Below, piece after piece: positions 10,778 to 55,212 of a stretch of DNA of 64,000 nucleotides (position 1 is its first letter; every line of letters starts with the position of its first letter). Location of the stretch: IMG/VR virus record IMGVR_UViG_3300043427_002668, one strand, 5' to 3'. The position numbers and the translations under genes are program-made. A model generated the notes under the pieces. The model did not search any database, was not told the DNA's origin, and saw nothing but the letters and a program-made list of their open reading frames with translations. The DNA comes from a virus (lineage: Duplodnaviria > Caudoviricetes).

Positions 10778-10849
10778 GGGCTCATAGTTAAGCGGATATA
10801 ACCTTCGCCTTCTAAGCGAATGTCCCTGGTTCGATTCCAGGTGAGCCTG
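10778..10849 (+). tRNA. tRNA-Arg(TCT)
   Basis: Cloverleaf GGGCTCA/TGAGCCT; anticodon loop CT-TCT-AA; TTCGATT T-loop; no encoded CCA. Confidence 0.92.
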
Positions 10850-10933
10850 TTGGAGTTTATCTCCATATATAAAAGTAATAGAGAGTAAGTCTCTGTTATA
10901 TCCTTATGAGGTATATCACACTTACTCCATCTT

Positions 10934-11018
10934 GCCCGAATGGCGGAATTGGCAAACGCAATAGGTTTAGGTCCTATCGCCCTACGACGGCTTACAGGTT
11001 CAAATCCTGTTTCGGGCA
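10934..11018 (+). tRNA. tRNA-Leu(TAG)
   Basis: GCCCGAA/TTCGGGC; loop TT-TAG-GT; long variable arm. Confidence 0.92.
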
Positions 11019-11019
11019 C

Positions 11020-11048
11020 TTGACAATCAAACTCAAAAGGTTTATGAT
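11020..11048 (+). promoter_or_regulatory. sigma70 promoter inside the tRNA array
   Basis: TTGACA-17 nt-TATGAT, embedded in a GACAATCA/TGATTGTC inverted repeat. Confidence 0.65.
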
Positions 11049-11058
11049 TGTCTCATAA

Positions 11059-11129
11059 GCGGGTATAGTTTAGGGGTAAAATGCCATCCTTCCAAGTTGG
11101 AGTCACCGGTTCGATTCCGGTTACCCGCT
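11059..11129 (+). tRNA. tRNA-Gly(TCC)
   Basis: GCGGGTA/TACCCGC; loop CT-TCC-AA. Confidence 0.92.
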
Positions 11130-11149
11130 CTGAACCTTCGGGTTCTTAT

Positions 11150-11221
11150 TCCACAATGGCGCAGCGGTAGCGCAGAAGACTGTTAATCTTTTGGTCCCTG
11201 GTTCGAATCCAGGTTGTGGAG
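11150..11221 (+). tRNA. tRNA-Asn(GTT)
   Basis: TCCACAA/TTGTGGA; loop CT-GTT-AA. Confidence 0.93.
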
Positions 11222-11255
11222 TTGAAAGGGTTGGAAATGTCCGATTCTTTCATAT

Positions 11256-11453
11256 TGGTTCTGGGTGGAATTCCCAGCAGTTCCGTTAGGGACTGTCCTT
11301 TGTAGGTTCGATACCTACATCTTCCTTATGGGAGATAAGAACGGCTATTGGAAACCTTCGTAGGTGCCAAAACCTCTCCCCAGGTCGATGTTTAAACTGG
11401 TGCTTGGGTGAATGTAAAGAGTGGGGACATAGGTAAAGTCCCCAACACCTACC
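11256..11453 (+). ncRNA. ~200 nt multi-stem structured RNA, candidate manA RNA motif
   Basis: Four-hairpin junction closed by GTTCT/AGAAC, includes a T-loop, plus 3' pseudoknot. Size and tRNA adjacency fit the cyanophage manA motif; identity not verified. Confidence 0.5.
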
Positions 11454-11457
11454 ACAT

Positions 11458-11529
11458 CCTCTGGTAGTCTATTGGTAAGGACAGGCAGACAATGCACTTG
11501 GAAACTAGGTTCGATTCCTAGACAGAGGA
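11458..11529 (+). ncRNA. tRNA-like element with aberrant anticodon arm
   Basis: Acceptor, D and T arms are canonical; anticodon arm forms only a bulged stem with a 5-nt GACAA loop. Confidence 0.65.
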
Positions 11530-11535
11530 CCTTTT

Positions 11536-11608
11536 GCCCGATGACCCAGCTAGTGAAGGGACCTGCCTTACAAGCAGGCATCGGTAGGGGCGGAACCTAT
11601 ATCGGGCA
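11536..11608 (+). tRNA. tRNA-Val(TAC) with non-canonical T-loop
   Basis: GCCCGAT/ATCGGGC; loop CT-TAC-AA; T-loop GGCGGAA. Confidence 0.82.
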
Positions 11609-11638
11609 TACTTGATAAATAAATACAAAAAGAGTATA

Positions 11639-12073
11639 ATGGAAAAACTGTTTAAACTCTTAAGTGATGCTCAGTCATCACTTTTTGTTTTATTTCATAA
11701 AACTTGGGCGTTTCACTGGAATGTAGTTGGAGAAGATTTTACTCAACTACATCAACTCTTTGGCGGACAGTATGAAACGATGTTTGAAGAGATTGACAGA
11801 CTCTCCGAACATATGAGATACTTAAATGTAAAACCATTAAGTTCTCTTTCAAGAATGCTTGAGGTTACACAAATTAAAGAGGCAGCAAGTTCATCTGGAG
11901 CAAAAGATATGCTTCAAGAACTTCTGGATAATAACACTAAGTTTTGTGAGTTGATGGTAGAGATTTCGGAAGAAGCAGAGCAACAAAAGTCTTATGCAAC
12001 TGCTAATCTAGTTCAAGATTTAATGGAATCTCACGGTAAGTTTGTATGGCAATTAAGATCACATTTACAGTGA
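11639..12073 (+). CDS. dps: Dps family ferritin-like DNA-protecting protein
   Basis: HWNVVG..F..LH.LF..QY...IDRLSEHMR ferroxidase signature; C-terminal HGKFVWQLRS. Confidence 0.9.
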   Translation: MEKLFKLLSDAQSSLFVLFHKTWAFHWNVVGEDFTQLHQLFGGQYETMFEEIDRLSEHMRYLNVKPLSSLSRMLEVTQIKEAASSSGAKDMLQELLDNNTKFCELMVEISEEAEQQKSYATANLVQDLMESHGKFVWQLRSHLQ

Positions 12074-12088
12074 TGAGGATGAAGAACA

Positions 12089-12340
12089 ATGTTATCAATA
12101 AGATGCAAAGATTGTAATAGAGAACTAACAGGACACCACTCAAAAACAGTTACTTGTGGATGTCCGAATATGGCAACAATTCGTGGAGATAAGATTTCGG
12201 CACTTGACTTATCTCGCATTGTTATGCTAAACTCTTTAAAAGAAAATCAAAAAAAAGGTGTGCTGACTTCTCAAGATATTGCTTGGCAAGAAGCACGTCG
12301 CCAGCGTAAAGTTAGGCGTCTTGATTTTGAAGTTCGTTAA
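12089..12340 (+). CDS. small Zn-finger hypothetical protein
   Basis: CKDC...CGCPN motifs. Confidence 0.7.
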   Translation: MLSIRCKDCNRELTGHHSKTVTCGCPNMATIRGDKISALDLSRIVMLNSLKENQKKGVLTSQDIAWQEARRQRKVRRLDFEVR

Positions 12341-12352
12341 GAACTGAATATT

Positions 12353-12437
12353 GGAAAGGTGGTCGAGTGGTTGAAGGCTCCAGTCTTGAAAACTGGCGAT
12401 GTGAAAGCATCCGTGGGTTCGAATCCCACCCTTTCCG
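12353..12437 (+). tRNA. tRNA-Ser(TGA)
   Basis: GGAAAGG/CCTTTCC; loop CT-TGA-AA; long variable arm. Confidence 0.93.
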
Positions 12438-12549
12438 TTAAGAAGCATTAAAAATTTAAGATTCTCTTCAACAGTGTTACTCTTTGAACACAAATCGTTG
12501 ACGTTCAAAAGTCCAGAACTAGTATATAGTAGTAATACGAACTAGAAAA

Positions 12550-12699
12550 ATGGATCAACGCACCTATGATAATTGGGTGAAGATCAAAGAAACTTTTGAG
12601 GCTTCTGGTAACACTGATAATATGTTCTATAAAAGAGCAGTTGAGATAGTTAAAACCCGTAGAGATCCTCTTGCAAAATTTCTTGGAGATGAGAAGTGA
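12550..12699 (+). CDS. 49 aa hypothetical protein
   Basis: MDQRTYDNWVKIKETFEASGNTDNMFYKRAVEIVKTRRDPLAKFLGDEK read manually. Confidence 0.6.
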   Translation: MDQRTYDNWVKIKETFEASGNTDNMFYKRAVEIVKTRRDPLAKFLGDEK

Positions 12700-12899
12700 T
12701 GGAACCTCAAGACGAATTTATTACTCGTTCAGAAGTTCAGGAGATGATTGATGCAGCAATACGACGACACAACCGTAATGCTTCTATCATTAGTATGTGC
12801 GTCGGTTGGGTGGTTCTTGCTTTATTTGCTGAGGGACTACTGAGACTGATTGGTATTATTCCCCCACTCTTACCTTGGCTTAAGATCACGTTAAACTAA
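12699..12899 (+). CDS. small membrane protein
   Basis: ITRSEVQEMIDAAIRRHNRNAS followed by a TM helix. Confidence 0.7.
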   Translation: MEPQDEFITRSEVQEMIDAAIRRHNRNASIISMCVGWVVLALFAEGLLRLIGIIPPLLPWLKITLN

Positions 12900-13003
12900 T
12901 GTCAGAAGAAGATTTAGAAGAACTACTAAAAAGAGTTTTACAACAAAAGATGAATGAACTTTTTGAAGAACCTTCTACATACGAGGACGAAGACGATGAA
13001 TGA
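12899..13003 (+). CDS. 34 aa acidic peptide
   Basis: MSEEDLEELLKRVLQQKMNELFEEPSTYEDEDDE; overlaps both neighbours. Confidence 0.5.
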   Translation: MSEEDLEELLKRVLQQKMNELFEEPSTYEDEDDE

Positions 13004-13085
13004 CCGCATCTATACAGCACTCACAATCTTTGGTATAATAGGATTGTTAATCATTTGGTCCCTAGATCACGCATATATAAAATGA
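12996..13085 (+). CDS. 29 aa single-TM peptide
   Basis: MNDRIYTALTIFGIIGLLIIWSLDHAYIK. Confidence 0.5.
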   Translation: MNDRIYTALTIFGIIGLLIIWSLDHAYIK

Positions 13086-13198
13086 TTTTCCATATCGTAG
13101 AAGCACTCGCAGCAAATCCATTTTTTCTTTTTCTCTGCGGGTGCGGGTTGACAATCGTACCATTTGCTGGTATTATGTTTATACATAGAGACAAGTAA
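13082..13198 (+). CDS. 38 aa membrane peptide
   Basis: MIFHIVEALAANPFFLFLCGCGLTIVPFAGIMFIHRDK; ATGA overlap. Confidence 0.5.
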   Translation: MIFHIVEALAANPFFLFLCGCGLTIVPFAGIMFIHRDK

Positions 13199-13272
13199 CC
13201 GGGTTTAGCGCAGTTTGGTAGCGCATCTGCTTTGGGAGCAGAGGGTCGCAGGTTCGAATCCTGCAACTCGGA
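13199..13272 (+). tRNA. tRNA-Pro(TGG)
   Basis: CCGGGTT/AACTCGG; loop TT-TGG-GA. Confidence 0.92.
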
Positions 13273-13288
13273 CTCATAAAATCACTTT

Positions 13289-13522
13289 ATGAAAATGAAT
13301 CCAGAAATCGAAAAACTTCCATCCTTTACAATTGAAGAGTTTCAAGCAGATTTTGATAACCTTATGAATAGAGTAGAAAGCGGTGAGACACTACTCATCA
13401 AAAGTCAACACGGAAATGCAGTAATGGTTCCTTACAAAGAAGTGGTTAGTATATGTAACGAAGCAAATGTGGATCTTGAAGAGATAGTCAAGATTCACAC
13501 AGACCACGAAGAAGGGTCTTGA
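13289..13522 (+). CDS. Phd/YefM-like small protein (orphan antitoxin-like)
   Basis: FTIEEFQADFDNLMNRVESGETLLIKSQHGNAVMVP follows the Phd pattern; acidic tail. Confidence 0.45.
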   Translation: MKMNPEIEKLPSFTIEEFQADFDNLMNRVESGETLLIKSQHGNAVMVPYKEVVSICNEANVDLEEIVKIHTDHEEGS

Positions 13523-13547
13523 CAGAGCGTTCCAGGTCCGCTACTAT
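13519..13547 (+). promoter_or_regulatory. sigma70 promoter for tRNA-Ile
   Basis: TTGACA-17 nt-TACTAT. Confidence 0.7.
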
Positions 13548-13561
13548 AGATCTGGTCTTAA

Positions 13562-13633
13562 GGGACTGTCGCCTATGGGTTAAGGCCCACTGCTTATAAC
13601 GGTGTGAACTGAGTTCAAGTCTCAGCAGTCCTA
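13562..13633 (+). tRNA. tRNA-Ile(TAT)
   Basis: GGGACTG/CAGTCCT; loop CT-TAT-AA. Confidence 0.88.
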
Positions 13634-13635
13634 CT

Positions 13636-13783
13636 TTGCTTATCCATTTTGTAGTGGGTTTTTTAGGATAAGCAACAGAAAACCTACTTGAAAAAAGGAG
13701 AGTGAAAAACCCCAGCTGCAAGTCGGTGCGAAACAGACCTATGACTTGTATTGCGCTTCTGTTTCACTGTATGGATCTCTCCT
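13636..13783 (+). ncRNA. candidate structured RNA(s) between tRNA-Ile and the HNH gene
   Basis: 10-bp stem with pseudoknot potential (13636-13687), then nested stems AGGAGAG/CTCTCCT, GTGAAA/TTTCAC, TGCAAGTC/GACTTGTA. Confidence 0.5.
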
Positions 13784-13798
13784 CCAACATACATTTAT

Positions 13799-13806
13799 TA
13801 TAAATA
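13799..13806 (+). promoter_or_regulatory. T4-type late promoter TATAAATA inside an RBS-sequestering hairpin
   Basis: Exact consensus, flanked by ACATACAT/GTGTATGT. Confidence 0.7.
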
Positions 13807-13811
13807 GGTGT

Positions 13812-14252
13812 ATGTATACGTTCATAACCAAAATGATTATCTGTAAATCCTGCGGTAAAGAAGTTGAACAACATCCACGAAAAGGTGGAAGAGCAAAACT
13901 CTATTGTAATGAAACTTGCCGAATGAAATGGAGATATAGAAATGATCCTTGTGTTATGAACAGAAACACTTATACTGAACAAAAAGAACGTGCATATTCC
14001 AATAAATGGAAAGCACTTCAATATAAAGGTGCTAAGTGTCAAACTTGTGGTGAAGATAGGCCAGCAACTCTATGCTTTCATCATAGAGATCCTTCTCAAA
14101 AAGAATTAAAACTTGATGGAAGATCTTTTGCTAATAGGAAATGGGACACTATCAAAGAAGAAGTAGATAAATGTGATCTTCTTTGTCATAACTGCCATCA
14201 TATATTACATTATGGTGATAGTTGGGGAGAGTTTTTACAAACGCTGGTTTAG
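13812..14252 (+). CDS. HNH endonuclease (free-standing, in tRNA array)
   Basis: CQTCG...FHHRDP...KCDLLCHNCH; N-terminal CxxC/CxxxC; ATG 13812 follows an AGGTG SD; stop lies inside the tRNA-CAT gene. Confidence 0.85.
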   Translation: MYTFITKMIICKSCGKEVEQHPRKGGRAKLYCNETCRMKWRYRNDPCVMNRNTYTEQKERAYSNKWKALQYKGAKCQTCGEDRPATLCFHHRDPSQKELKLDGRSFANRKWDTIKEEVDKCDLLCHNCHHILHYGDSWGEFLQTLV

Positions 14253-14315
14253 CTCTCTGGCGAAAGCACTGCCCTCATAAGGCAAGATAGGTCGGTTCGA
14301 TCCCGACAACCAGCA
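14243..14315 (+). tRNA. tRNA-Met(CAT) (elongator Met or Ile2 not distinguishable by eye)
   Basis: GCTGGTT/AACCAGC; loop CT-CAT-AA. Confidence 0.85.
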
Positions 14316-15178: not shown

Positions 15179-15376
15179 ATGACAGTTAAAAAATCAACAT
15201 CTTCGGATAAACCTTATATGTCCGAATACGATAAAAGTGTTGAGACTCGTCTTCAAAATCTTGAAGAAAAGTTCAGCGATTCTAGTTCAGATAATATTGA
15301 TGAAGATAGACTTTCTGCTTTAGAAGCAAAGGTTAATAATCTTATTGAGAGACTTTCTAAAAAAATGTCTTTCTGA
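15179..15376 (+). CDS. short coiled-coil protein
   Basis: VETRLQNLEE...LSALEAKVNNLIERL. Confidence 0.6.
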   Translation: MTVKKSTSSDKPYMSEYDKSVETRLQNLEEKFSDSSSDNIDEDRLSALEAKVNNLIERLSKKMSF

Positions 15377-15377
15377 G

Positions 15378-15470
15378 TTTCCAATTTCTCTCAAGAATTG
15401 GTGGTGCGGATGGGGAATTCTTTCTCCGCCTGGTTTCCAATTTCCAGTTAAAGAATTGGTGGCGAGCCTG
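15378..15470 (+). ncRNA. probable wcaG RNA motif
   Basis: Two repeated CCAATT/AATTGG hairpins, each followed by TGGYG (TGGTGCGGA; TGGCGAGCCTG); located before a polysaccharide gene island, as known for the cyanophage wcaG motif. Confidence 0.6.
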
Positions 15471-15481
15471 AATTAATTATT

Positions 15482-38821: not shown

Positions 38822-38865
38822 AAATACATCAACGGGTTAAGAAATGTAACAGGTTCTTAATCTTT

Positions 38866-38980
38866 GTGCTCCCGTTAACCGAGACCTATGGGAGGGTAAA
38901 TCACGTCTCTCATACCCACACTGGAGGGTGGTGTGGGGAATATTGTAACATCCAGAACCCCCTGGACTTTTACTTACCCT
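38866..38980 (+). ncRNA. structured psbA leader, probable PhotoRC-II motif
   Basis: CTCCC/GGGAG, GAGAC/GTCTC, CCACAC/GTGTGG and TCCAG/CTGGA pairings upstream of phage psbA. Confidence 0.6.
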
Positions 38981-53454: not shown

Positions 53455-53781
53455 ATGGGGAAGCATTACTTACTTAACTTGTATGGATGCTCGTTTGTCC
53501 TTTTGGACGACGAGCGTTGTCTTATAGACTTATTAGAAAACGCAGCAGCTGCAAGTGGTGCTACTGTAGTTCAGACCATTTCAAAGAAGTTTCATCCACA
53601 GGGAGTCACTGTGATTTGCTTGTTGTCTGAAAGTCATATCAGTATCCATACATGGCCTGAGGAAGGTAAAGCAGCAGTGGATGTTTATACTTGTGGTGAT
53701 TGTAATCCAAAGATTGGTTGTGATATTATCATTCAGCAACTTTATGCATCTAATCATACATTGAGTTACATAGAACGGTAA
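53455..53781 (+). CDS. speD: S-adenosylmethionine decarboxylase proenzyme
   Basis: GKHYLLNLYGC, LLSE|SHISIHTWPE pyruvoyl cleavage site, DVYTCG. Confidence 0.93.
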   Translation: MGKHYLLNLYGCSFVLLDDERCLIDLLENAAAASGATVVQTISKKFHPQGVTVICLLSESHISIHTWPEEGKAAVDVYTCGDCNPKIGCDIIIQQLYASNHTLSYIER

Positions 53782-53791
53782 CAAATGTTAC
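53778..53791 (+). promoter_or_regulatory. NtcA-type binding site
   Basis: GTA-ACAAATGT-TAC = GTA-N8-TAC, extended to the GTAAC/GTTAC palindrome. Confidence 0.55.
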
Positions 53792-53799
53792 AAAGTTAG

Positions 53800-53828
53800 T
53801 TGCATATATAAACCAACGGGTCTATAAT
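53800..53828 (+). promoter_or_regulatory. sigma70 promoter
   Basis: TTGCAT-17 nt-TATAAT; predicted start about 53835, at the riboswitch 5' end. Confidence 0.7.
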
Positions 53829-53834
53829 GATCCT

Positions 53835-53920
53835 ACGTTCATCCCTATGGGACGGAAGTAAGCCGACGCGGAACGGAACGTTCATCGGGAAACCGACGCA
53901 AACGCCGACTGAAGGAACGC
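53835..53920 (+). ncRNA. glutamine-II (Downstream-peptide) riboswitch-like RNA with internal duplication
   Basis: CGTTCA...CGGAAGTAAG...GAAGGAACGC landmarks; second CGTTCATC copy at 53879. Confidence 0.75.
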
Positions 53921-53952
53921 TCTTTAACCTAAAAAACTAAGGAGAAAACCTA

Positions 53953-54090
53953 ATGTCTAAAGTAGTATATCGTGGCGTTGAATATGATACGCAAAAGCGT
54001 ATTGCATATCAACAGCAAATGATGCAACAACCCCAACAATACAACGAAACCTATCGTGGTGTTAAGTTTGTAAAGGAGGGACACAAATGA
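53953..54090 (+). CDS. DUF4278-like peptide (45 aa)
   Basis: MSKVVYRGVEYDT...ETYRGVKF, two YRGV motifs; AAGGAG SD. Confidence 0.8.
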   Translation: MSKVVYRGVEYDTQKRIAYQQQMMQQPQQYNETYRGVKFVKEGHK

Positions 54091-54188
54091 ACACTTACTT
54101 CGTTCGTTACCTTAAGAAAAAAGCAAAGAAGGAACAACTCCTTCATAACGCACAATTGAATATGGCTAAGCAACCACAAGTTGCTTAA
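54087..54188 (+). CDS. 33 aa basic peptide
   Basis: MNTYFVRYLKKKAKKEQLLHNAQLNMAKQPQVA; ATGA overlap. Confidence 0.55.
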   Translation: MNTYFVRYLKKKAKKEQLLHNAQLNMAKQPQVA

Positions 54189-54194
54189 TAAATC

Positions 54195-54224
54195 AGAGAG
54201 GGACTTGACTCCCTCTCTTTTTTT
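54195..54224 (+). terminator. intrinsic terminator
   Basis: AGAGAGGGA/TCCCTCTCT plus T-run. Confidence 0.75.
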
Positions 54225-54253
54225 ATGTATAATTACCTTTGTGAGGGTTAATC

Positions 54254-54493
54254 ATGATGGATAAAGAAAATCTTAAGTTAATCATCAGAAACCTAGAGTC
54301 TCTTGTAGACTGTTTGAAGTCAGAAGTCTATTCTGATGTTAATTCATATAAACCTCAGTATGAGGAGATTGCTCCTTATATTGATGATTATGATGAAGTC
54401 TTTTATGATGAAGAGGAAGATGATGTATTTGGATCAGTAAGGGTCAACAAAAAATACAAACTAACAAACGACGATGATGGAGATGGACTGTGA
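54254..54493 (+). CDS. hypothetical acidic protein
   Basis: LKLIIRNLESLVDCLKSEVYSD. Confidence 0.7.
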   Translation: MMDKENLKLIIRNLESLVDCLKSEVYSDVNSYKPQYEEIAPYIDDYDEVFYDEEEDDVFGSVRVNKKYKLTNDDDGDGL

Positions 54494-55212
54494 AGGACAT
54501 GTTTGAAGAATTCGAATTTATGAAACCAGAGGTAAAACTGGTGTCTGTTACCCCAGATGCAGAGAAACACATGGCGTATTGTGCCCGCGTTTCTAACCCA
54601 AAGAATCAGGACAATGAAAGTTTTGATGGATTGCTTAAGTATTGTATTAAACATCAGCACTGGAGTATCTTCGAGCAAGCATCTATGACTGTAGAAATCA
54701 ATACTACAAGAGGTATTGCAGCTCAGATTTTGCGTCATAGGTCATTCACTTTTCAGGAGTTTTCTCAACGCTACGCTGATACCAATCTTCTAAACGAATC
54801 TATCCCTCTTCCTGAACTTCGTCGTCAAGATACGAAGAACCGTCAGAACTCAATTGACGACCTTCCAGACTACATGAAGCTTACTCTACTGGAAGATATC
54901 CGCGTTCTATTCGAACAGTCTCAGAGGGTCTACAACCGCCTTCTGGAGAAGGGAGTAGCAAAGGAGTGTGCTAGGTTCGTACTACCCTTAGCGACCCCTA
55001 CACGCCTCTATATGACGGGTTCTGTGAGGTCTTGGATTCACTACATTGATTTGAGAGCAGGTCATGGTACACAGAAGGAACATATGGATATTGCTGAGGC
55101 AATTCGTTGTATTTTTACTTGTCAATTCCCAGCAGTTTCTGCTGCTCTTAATTGGAATCGTGATAACTGTGCTGATTGTGAAAGTATTCAACCATCAGTT
55201 CGTATAGACTAA
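54490..55212 (+). CDS. thyX: flavin-dependent thymidylate synthase
   Basis: HWSIFEQ, RHRSFTFQEFSQRY, KECARFVLP, HGTQKEH. Confidence 0.96.
   Translation: MKDMFEEFEFMKPEVKLVSVTPDAEKHMAYCARVSNPKNQDNESFDGLLKYCIKHQHWSIFEQASMTVEINTTRGIAAQILRHRSFTFQEFSQRYADTNLLNESIPLPELRRQDTKNRQNSIDDLPDYMKLTLLEDIRVLFEQSQRVYNRLLEKGVAKECARFVLPLATPTRLYMTGSVRSWIHYIDLRAGHGTQKEHMDIAEAIRCIFTCQFPAVSAALNWNRDNCADCESIQPSVRID

Follow-up and report, generated by a model that had tools for sequence, protein, structure and literature searches.

A probable nitrogen-sensing cassette with a nested double glutamine aptamer in a freshwater cyanophage

Introduction

How would a short viral leader RNA fold when it carries the same aptamer half twice, and what could such an RNA report about the infected cell? 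This question is raised by a cassette that lies between speD and thyX in a stretch of 64,000 nucleotides (nt; hereafter the window), which is part of a 115-kb viral contig in IMG/VR (IMGVR_UViG_3300043427_002668) from a T4-like freshwater cyanophage. An earlier reading of this sequence (the original prediction) had placed here an NtcA-type box, a promoter, two repeats, three copies of GGAACG, two short open reading frames (ORFs) and a terminator, all of which we found where it had put them, and had interpreted the leader as a tandem or domain-swapped glutamine-II aptamer. The best explanation of our results is that the locus is a self-contained nitrogen-sensing cassette with a nested double glutamine aptamer, and we put the probability of this explanation at about 0.7. 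Its nested topology, the family membership of its RNA and the conservation of its box, peptides and terminator are the part of the explanation that is demonstrated here.

In cyanobacteria, no RNA sensors of nitrogen status other than glutamine riboswitches are known; many of these are found as doublets, the units of which have been taken to be independent. The type-I switch precedes gifB in Synechocystis sp. PCC 6803, and the type-II switch precedes short DUF4278 genes in marine picocyanobacteria (PMC6212724). Tandem glutamine riboswitches are known (PMC2864571), with 157 doublets and 4 triplets reported in PMC9481103, and the cyanophage S-CREM1 has been annotated with a 99-nt glnA riboswitch (RF01739, 44.0 bits; PMC9964418).

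Results

Family assignment of the cassette RNA

An Rfam search matched RF01739 (glutamine riboswitch type I, glnA RNA) to positions 53834-53923 with 43.3 bits against a curated gathering score of 35, and this was the only glutamine-riboswitch family above its cut-off at the cassette RNA. The idea of a glutamine-riboswitch leader in a cyanophage is therefore upheld by a score above the cut-off, but the glutamine-II (Downstream-peptide) label is not: the glutamine-II model RF01704 reached 12.2-13.4 bits against a cut-off of 33 when run on the window RNA, both whole and as single units, and the RF01704-type hairpin that encloses GGAACG and forms a pseudoknot with CGUUC is absent in the window, where no complement to 53903-09 occurs downstream of 53919. 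The accompanying premise, that glutamine-II switches control gifB and DUF4278 genes, holds for the short DUF4278 genes but fails for gifB, which has a type-I switch in Synechocystis (PMC6212724). In some marine relatives, the second unit together with a downstream hairpin fits RF01704 at 27-33 bits.

The duplication of the 5' half is genuine. Repeat 1 (CGUUCA-UCCC-UAU-GGGA-CGGAA) begins at 53836 and repeat 2 (CGUUCA-UCGG-GAAA-CCGA-CGCAA) at 53879, with copies of GGAACG at 53870, 53875 and 53914; these elements, like the other RNA features, promoter hexamers, peptides and terminator given below, are on the + strand. Taken singly, the repeat units scored 29.0 and 30.9 bits against RF01739, both below 35 (E ~1e-5 each). 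In the alignment that exceeds the cut-off, the 5' half of repeat 1 is joined to the 3' half of repeat 2, and the intervening 46 nt count as an insert in helix P2; the simple P2 hairpin of type-I switches is absent from the window RNA, and a 46-nt domain with a second core stands in its place. Two type-I features, the P1 helix CGUUC/GAACG and a covarying P1a hairpin, are present in the window RNA, and two more, loop E beside P2 and the long-range linchpin pair, are satisfied only if the RNA folds in the nested manner described below. On this sequence evidence the cassette RNA belongs to the type-I glutamine riboswitch family, of which it is an architectural variant with an interlocked double core.

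Topology of the double aptamer

In the proposed structure the two repeat units would fold as a single interlocked object. The first CGUUC (53836-53840) and the last GAACG (53915-53919) would form the outer P1, as in the Rfam alignment; the first GAACG and the second CGUUC would form a small inner hairpin (GAACG-GAA-CGUUC, 53871-53883); and the segment 3' of AGUA in unit 1 (53861-53868) would pair with the segment 5' of GAAG in unit 2 (CGCCGACU, 53903-53910) to make a shared helix, P2*, connecting two three-way junctions. The outer junction would be a canonical type-I core, in which a CGG joiner and loop E (AGUA/GAA) are combined with the linchpin G53855:C53920. The inner junction, carried on the P2 arm, would be a circular permutation of the aptamer core, with CGC as a type-II-like joiner, C53899:G53876 as its linchpin and its strands running in the order P2* strand, G, GAACG, triloop, CGUUC, A, P1a, CGCAAA, P2* strand.

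We compared this fold with relatives obtained by scanning IMG/VR for the unit junction, which gave 112 distinct double units; depending on the question, the sets used were 111 distinct upstream regions, 80 distinct sequences (for the linchpin), 27 compact sequences (for RNAalifold) and 103 leaders. Two CGUUCA units were also present in 11/11 related phage loci from GenBank. A scan of genome contigs with the junction pattern yielded, among at least 120 matches listed, none with aptamer context, a result that has no bearing on hosts.

Five independent lines of evidence favour the nested fold over a side-by-side arrangement, i.e. of the two possibilities held out by the original prediction, the domain-swapped aptamer is favoured and the side-by-side tandem is disfavoured by linchpin, P2*, loop E and energy. 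The ligand site of the two solved glutamine riboswitches is closed by a long-range pair between the nucleotide that follows the joiner CG and the one that follows GAACG (PMC6698751). In 80/80 distinct relatives, the joiner base of unit 1 is complementary to the nucleotide that comes next to the second GAACG on its 3' side (C:G in 65, G:C in 15). The nucleotide 3' of the first GAACG is G in 79/80, and the joiner base of unit 2 is C in all 80. With these identities a side-by-side fold would give G.G and C.C in the window's clade; in the nested fold of the window RNA, G53855:C53920 and C53899:G53876 are both complementary.

The shared helix covaries. At position 8 of P2* the relatives have U-A, A-U or G-C with zero mismatches, at position 1 they have A-U, G-C, G.U or C-G, and AGUCG/CGACU is replaced by AGUCA/UGACU within the short form. 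The two P2* segments also gain or lose 3 nt together, the length relation being kept in 18/22 combinations (reached by 1/20000 permutations), and in the long class 75/96 cells are paired against 65.3 on permutation (reached by 0/20000). In the window, P2* has six Watson-Crick pairs with C.A and A.C mismatches. Loop E is split between the units: AGUA (53857-60) occurs in unit 1 only, and a separate GAA before GGAACG (53911-13, within the GAAG that leads into the outer P1 3' strand, 53911-53919) in unit 2 only.

RNAalifold, applied to the 27 compact relatives, recovered the outer P1 (columns 3-7/99-103, invariant in 27/27), the inner GAACG/CGUUC hairpin (columns 44-48/52-56, also in the minimum free energy (MFE) folds of the window RNA) and both P1a stems. 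Compensatory changes fall at 4/4 pairs of P1a(1) (UCCC-UAU-GGGA, 53842-53852) and at 4/5 pairs of P1a(2) (UCGG-GAAA-CCGA, 53885-53896). Nearest-neighbour energies of the window RNA were -16.4 kcal/mol for the nested and -12.4 kcal/mol for the side-by-side fold, and the unconstrained MFE fold was also nested. The z-scores of the whole-leader MFE were unremarkable in the window (-0.64 and -1.36).

Putative ligand sites

In crystal structures glutamine is contacted by the C of CGUUC, the C and G of GAACG, and a G of the joiner (PMC6698751), and these bases are present and invariant in both the outer and the inner core across the 80 distinct sequences. The outer joiner, CGGAAGUA (53853-53860), follows the Rfam consensus; with residue roles taken from the solved structures (PMC6698751), G53854 is the counterpart of the ligand-contacting G and G53855 the linchpin partner of C53920. 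The inner joiner, CGCAAA (53897-53902), has the type-II-like CGC, with C53899 as its linchpin base. Since both junctions retain the glutamine-contacting nucleotides, two ligand sites within one fold are plausible on sequence grounds.

The P1a loops of the relatives have a further property. In 82/112 distinct double units the loop of P1a(2), of P1a(1) or of both is expanded to a 130-200 nt insert that contains a complete ORF of 45-75 codons, with its ATG in the 5' strand of the stem and its stop codon in the 3' strand or the joiner; examples are L008:1091-1270 (S-SM2 SSM2_270), L001:1357-1533, L018 and L050. The encoded proteins are hydrophobic at the N-terminus and share two conserved Cys. Both units of the window have compact P1a hairpins and no loop ORF. 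Because the start and stop codons of an enclosed ORF lie in the stem, folding of the aptamer and translation of that ORF would exclude each other. Our fullest reading, that the RNA is a single interlocked two-site sensor coupled by the shared helix and the exchanged P1 strands, with P1a-loop ORFs, where present, mutually exclusive with aptamer folding, is tentative and falls a little short of an even bet. Coupled sites of this kind could give a cooperative, switch-like reading of glutamine.

The alternative that survives best keeps the nested fold and reduces it to one working sensor: the outer type-I junction alone would bind glutamine, and the inner core would be a decorated P2 arm, a relic of the duplication that serves folding or stability. 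It would account for an inner junction that has no loop E and a shortened strand between P2* and GAACG, for an Rfam model that takes the whole interior as a P2 insert and still scores 43.3 bits, and for P1a loops that tolerate inserts of 130-200 nt in relatives. However, the inner CGUUCA, CGC joiner, G-GAACG and C:G linchpin are invariant or nearly so in the 80 distinct sequences, far beyond what a spacer needs, and the conserved bases of the inner core are those that contact glutamine in the type-II structure, which likewise has no loop E (PMC6698751). We consider a single sensor unlikely, if still worth bearing in mind.

Expression platform

The proposed control is translational. The Shine-Dalgarno (SD) sequence of peptide 1, UAAGGAG (53938-53944), lies 8 nt before the ATG at 53953 and is paired in MFE folds with an anti-SD segment, CUCUUUA (53920-53926), so that the SD would be sequestered in a 7-bp hairpin that begins at C53920. 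Because C53920 serves both as the partner in the outer linchpin and as the closing base of this hairpin, glutamine binding should compete with the SD hairpin, and translation of peptide 1 would rise; via the ATGA overlap between the two reading frames, translation of peptide 2 would rise along with it. The type-I and type-II glutamine switches of the hosts are ON switches (PMC6212724), and by analogy we infer the ON direction for the window phage.

In about 75/103 leaders of the relatives, six bases at the SD (CUUCAG, CUUUAG or CUUUGG) are complementary to the aptamer sequence CURAAG, including a CUAAAG:CUUUAG double change, and in a model of the S-PM2 leader the accessibility of the SD rose from 0.16 to 0.55 when the aptamer bases were withheld, in line with the ON logic of the host switches (PMC6212724). 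The window belongs to a second platform class, with a dedicated anti-SD (53920-26) immediately 3' of P1; the anti-SD segment is invariant within this class, which therefore offers no covariation evidence for the SD hairpin. The A-rich loop and SD (CUAAAAAACUAAGGAGAA, 53908-53946) are almost the same as the tail at the 3' end of the preQ1-I consensus, probably by chance; a preQ1-I match over the same positions scored 17.5 bits against a cut-off of 39 and was rejected as a chance hit.

NtcA-type box and promoter

The NtcA-type box GTA-N8-TAC (GTAACAAATGTTAC) lies at 53778-53791 and overlaps the stop codon of speD. In the window the bare pattern is about as frequent as chance predicts (11 copies against 8.55 expected). 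Among the relatives an exact box is found in 80/111 distinct upstream regions, at fixed positions and behind different upstream genes, with a variable N8 and frequent T/A flanks, which marks it as a conserved element. In 72 of the 80 relatives with an exact box it is followed, after 13 nt, by TA[n][A/C]TA, across three upstream architectures; the composite box-N13-TAnATA, a pattern derived post hoc from the relatives, occurs once in the window against 0.04 expected.

Two -10 candidates follow the box. The -35-like hexamer TTGCAT (53800-53805) matches TTGACA at 3/6 positions, is TTGACT in most relatives and was not listed by the consensus scan; 17 nt separate it from the -10 hexamer TATAAT (53823-53828), for which the predicted start is at ~53835, one base before the first CGUUC. 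The hexamer TATATA (53805-53810) stands exactly 13 nt past the box and is a candidate -10 of an NtcA-occluded promoter, or a late-promoter-like element. The centre of the box is at about -50.5 relative to TTGCAT-17-TATAAT, with 31 nt between box and TATAAT, and at about -32 relative to TATATA, with 13 nt between them; activator geometry (centre at about -41.5, 22 nt before the -10) fits neither candidate. In gifA and gifB the NtcA sites are at -30.5 and -7.5 (PMC6316151). The fixed N13 spacing resembles the repressor geometry of gifA, so that the original caveat about a box centred near -50, which is correct with respect to TATAAT, may dissolve with respect to TATATA.

The distance from box to aptamer in the relatives falls into classes of 44-46, 39-40 and 24-25 nt. 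Members of the short class (L002, L003, L056, L082, L112 and L113) have their aptamer 24-25 nt after the box and have neither the TATAAT hairpin nor a second -10; their sole -10-like hexamer precedes the aptamer by 5-6 nt and places the box at about -30. In the window, TATAAT is enclosed by a hairpin, GGGUC-UAUAAU-GAUCC (53818-53833), which is also in the MFE fold. Its stems vary in the relatives yet stay complementary (e.g. GGTC/GACC, GTGTTA/TAACAC and GACGC/GTGTC), with a mean best stem of 6.1 bp against 4.7 bp in shuffled sequences and 80 distinct stem/loop combinations in 111 sequences. The conservation of this hairpin suggests that some transcripts may begin upstream of it.

The sigma-70-type promoter would give rise to a short mRNA whose leader begins at the aptamer or ~18 nt upstream of it. 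NtcA would most likely repress this promoter at high 2-oxoglutarate, as it does for the host gif genes, although we infer both its binding and the sign of its effect, and the cassette would then be expressed in a nitrogen-replete cell.

It is possible, but in our view doubtful, that the box is something other than an NtcA site, i.e. a chance palindrome at the end of speD, a part of the early/late promoter architecture of the phage, or the site of another factor. The chance-level frequency of the bare pattern is compatible with this, as is the position of the box, which matches none of the classical NtcA geometries when measured from the best sigma-70 promoter. Also compatible is the TTGACTA[A/T]ATA block, which is similar to the late motif of cyanomyoviruses, NATAAATA, and could alternatively be read as part of the overlapping early and late promoters that these phages are believed to use (PMC2984593). 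An exact box in 80/111 distinct relatives behind different upstream genes speaks for NtcA instead, and so does the pattern of fixed GTA/TAC and T/A flanks around a variable N8, the signature of the NtcA consensus TGTA-N8-TACA; NtcA sites have already been predicted in all cyanomyovirus genomes (PMC3037559). The idea that TTGACTATATA serves as a promoter motif throughout the phage was rejected, since it is not enriched (30 seen, 34.6 expected).

Peptides and terminator

Peptide 1 (53953-54090) has 45 amino acids and two YRG motifs, which it has in common with nearly all genes downstream of a double aptamer. It matches PF14105 (DUF4278) with E 0.0012 and 19.6 bits, under the gathering score of 25.3, and phrog_5049 with E 1.1e-10; PF14105 is matched by 20/21 of its relatives, with E up to 0.01. 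Its Atlas score is 0.96 and its Atlas neighbours are partly DUF4278 proteins, and residues Y6, R7, G8, Y11, Y34, R35 and G36 are invariant in the relatives. By these sequence matches peptide 1 is DUF4278-like, as had been proposed. A PDB sequence search found no solved relative, the sole match being a spurious one to P22 gp10, and the AlphaFold2 model of peptide 1 (pLDDT 63, pTM 0.25) was too poor for a fold search.

Peptide 2 (54087-54188), a basic, predicted helical peptide of 33 amino acids, is preceded by a separate SD (AAGGAGG, 54072-78), and its reading frame overlaps that of peptide 1 at ATGA. Its module follows peptide 1 at the same -4 (ATGA) overlap in about 30 relatives and is elsewhere fused to the YRG module, at the N-terminal side in marine phages and at the C-terminal side in S-CREM1. 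Judged by this conservation, peptide 2 is a genuine conserved family and no artefact, and it is predicted to be translationally coupled in the window. Because the overlap is conserved and the modules are fused in other phages, we argue that peptides 1 and 2 act together.

An intrinsic terminator (54195-54225) closes the cassette, with a 9-bp stem (54195-54218; 5 G-C) followed by TTTTTTT. A near-consensus promoter (TTGACT-17-TATAAT, 11/12 positions; 54205-54233) starts inside the terminator loop and precedes a 79-aa ORF at 54254-54493 (phrog_878).

The original prediction also suggested that the peptides might act on host glutamine synthetase (GS). If they were gif-type inactivating factors that shut GS down, they would resemble IF17, a host DUF4278 protein that inhibits GS, and the pairing of NtcA repression with a glutamine switch at gifB (PMC6212724, PMC6316151) would have its counterpart here; the phage peptides are also basic and contain arginine. 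But what DUF4278 represents in IF17 is the N-terminal part, which has an effect on stability; GS is bound by the IF7-like C-terminus, which is missing from the short DUF4278 proteins (PMC6316151, PMC6212724). The Pfam match of peptide 1 below its cut-off, the lack of a solved relative in the PDB search and the low-confidence model also count against this role. GS inhibition by the peptides is not supported by the present analysis, and we regard it as improbable.

Genomic setting and samples

The cassette has speD (53455-53781) upstream and thyX (54490-55212) downstream, with phoH from 55491 downstream of thyX. The gene order in S-PM2 is identical, with speD, the cassette, small ORFs, td (thymidylate synthase) and phoH. 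The DNA runs that hold this stretch come from freshwater, lagoon and aquaculture metagenomes. Metatranscriptome contigs from four studies, which are 88-100% alike and come from relatives, span 53851-54096. This cover is only a hint that the cassette region is transcribed: the runs were chosen via this very stretch, contigs cannot rank expression and give no start, strand or level, and the missing cover over speD and peptide 2 carries no evidential weight.

The window contains other RNA elements found by Rfam, i.e. a wcaG RNA (15373-15473, 95 bits) and a PhotoRC-II RNA (38857-38951, 80 bits), both known cyanophage cis-regulatory motifs, and eight tRNA genes clustered at 10778-14315.

Discussion

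Several observations weigh against the explanation of the locus as a nitrogen-sensing cassette with a nested aptamer. The P1 strands are invariant, so that their partners cannot be read directly from covariation; the switch of the linchpin between G:C and C:G may represent one or two evolutionary events that separate a freshwater from a marine clade; and in the window the mismatched P2* adds nothing in the nearest-neighbour model (-16.4 kcal/mol vs -16.3 kcal/mol). In the marine relatives whose second unit fits type II at 27-33 bits, a side-by-side or switching fold is possible. As to the platform, the thermodynamic model makes SD accessibility in the window independent of the aptamer (0.15 vs 0.16), and the arguments for the ON direction are therefore one shared base and analogy; an OFF logic of kinetic origin, in which UGAAGG captures UCUUUA when no ligand is bound, could operate instead. 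At the promoter, a box centre at about -50.5 agrees neither with the place of an activator (-41.5) nor with a classic site of repression, the TATATA that could serve as an alternative -10 does not end in the usual T, and the transcription start at either -10 is a prediction. Finally, the DUF4278 likeness of peptide 1 comes with a Pfam score below the cut-off.

The least probable of the alternatives, and in our judgement a very unlikely one, is that of two independent side-by-side aptamers, an ordinary tandem doublet (Sherlock et al. 2022) in which each unit has its own P1, binds one glutamine and contributes to a 'pseudo-cooperative' steeper response, since, even though each unit alone reaches E ~1e-5 against RF01739 and the second unit of marine relatives fits RF01704 with its downstream hairpin, it would require G.G and C.C linchpins in the window's clade where the nested fold has G:C and C:G, would leave neither unit with both halves of loop E and neither above the Rfam cut-off, would lie ~4 kcal/mol above the nested fold, would turn P2* into a double pseudoknot with one-nucleotide linkers, and would leave the covariation between units and their matched indels unexplained.

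If the nested double aptamer is indeed a two-site sensor, an interlocked doublet would be a new way of sensing a ligand cooperatively, next to that of the tandem glycine riboswitch. Among cyanomyoviruses the cassette is widespread, with more than 100 distinct variants found, and it would copy the two-layer logic of the host gif genes, i.e. NtcA and glutamine. By analogy with those genes, the arrangement suggests that the phages time the production of two tiny proteins to the nitrogen state of the infected cell.

Glutamine switches in cyanophages are already known; the interlocked fold and the role of the peptides appear to be undescribed. The glnA elements of S-CREM1 (PMC9964418) and of S-PM2, where it lies between speD and td, belong to the same cassette and receive the same Rfam call, but the S-CREM1 record consists of the Rfam entry alone and the S-PM2 record holds nothing, the fold, box and peptides being unanalysed there. 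We found no description of the nested fold or of the P1a-loop ORFs in the searchable literature, which does not extend to Ames and Breaker 2011.

Among characterised glutamine riboswitches, the outer core most resembles the type-I switch of the Synechocystis gifB leader (RF01739; PMC6212724), with which it shares the P1 helix CGUUC/GAACG, the P1a hairpin, the CGGAAGUA joiner, loop E and the G:C linchpin. The setting is also similar, in that both are 5' leaders of a DUF4278-type gene with an NtcA-type box at the promoter and a translational output, the last of these being predicted for the window. Unlike the gifB leader, which has a P2 hairpin at this point, the phage RNA has a helix ending in a second core that is circularly permuted; it is phage-borne and precedes peptides of 45 and 33 amino acids where gifB encodes IF17; and a dedicated anti-SD that abuts P1 holds its SD. 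The inner core shares its CGC joiner, its C:G linchpin and its lack of loop E with glutamine-II of Prochlorococcus MED4 (yfr6/PMM1846, RF01704; PMC6212724, PMC6698751), which also has a short DUF4278-like ORF downstream. The GGAACG-enclosing pseudoknot hairpin of glutamine-II is missing from the phage RNA, however, and the inner P1 is here a closed hairpin.

The closest parallels to the whole are the tandem glutamine riboswitches (PMC9481103) and the cooperative tandem glycine riboswitch, which likewise have two homologous cores for one ligand in one leader; in the window there is a single output. The glutamine doublets as published are separate units with separate expression platforms (PMC9481103), whereas in the window the shared helix and the exchanged P1 strands would leave neither core able to fold independently. 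In gifB, NtcA repression is paired with a glutamine switch (PMC6212724, PMC6316151), and the window combines an NtcA-type box with a glutamine aptamer in the same way.

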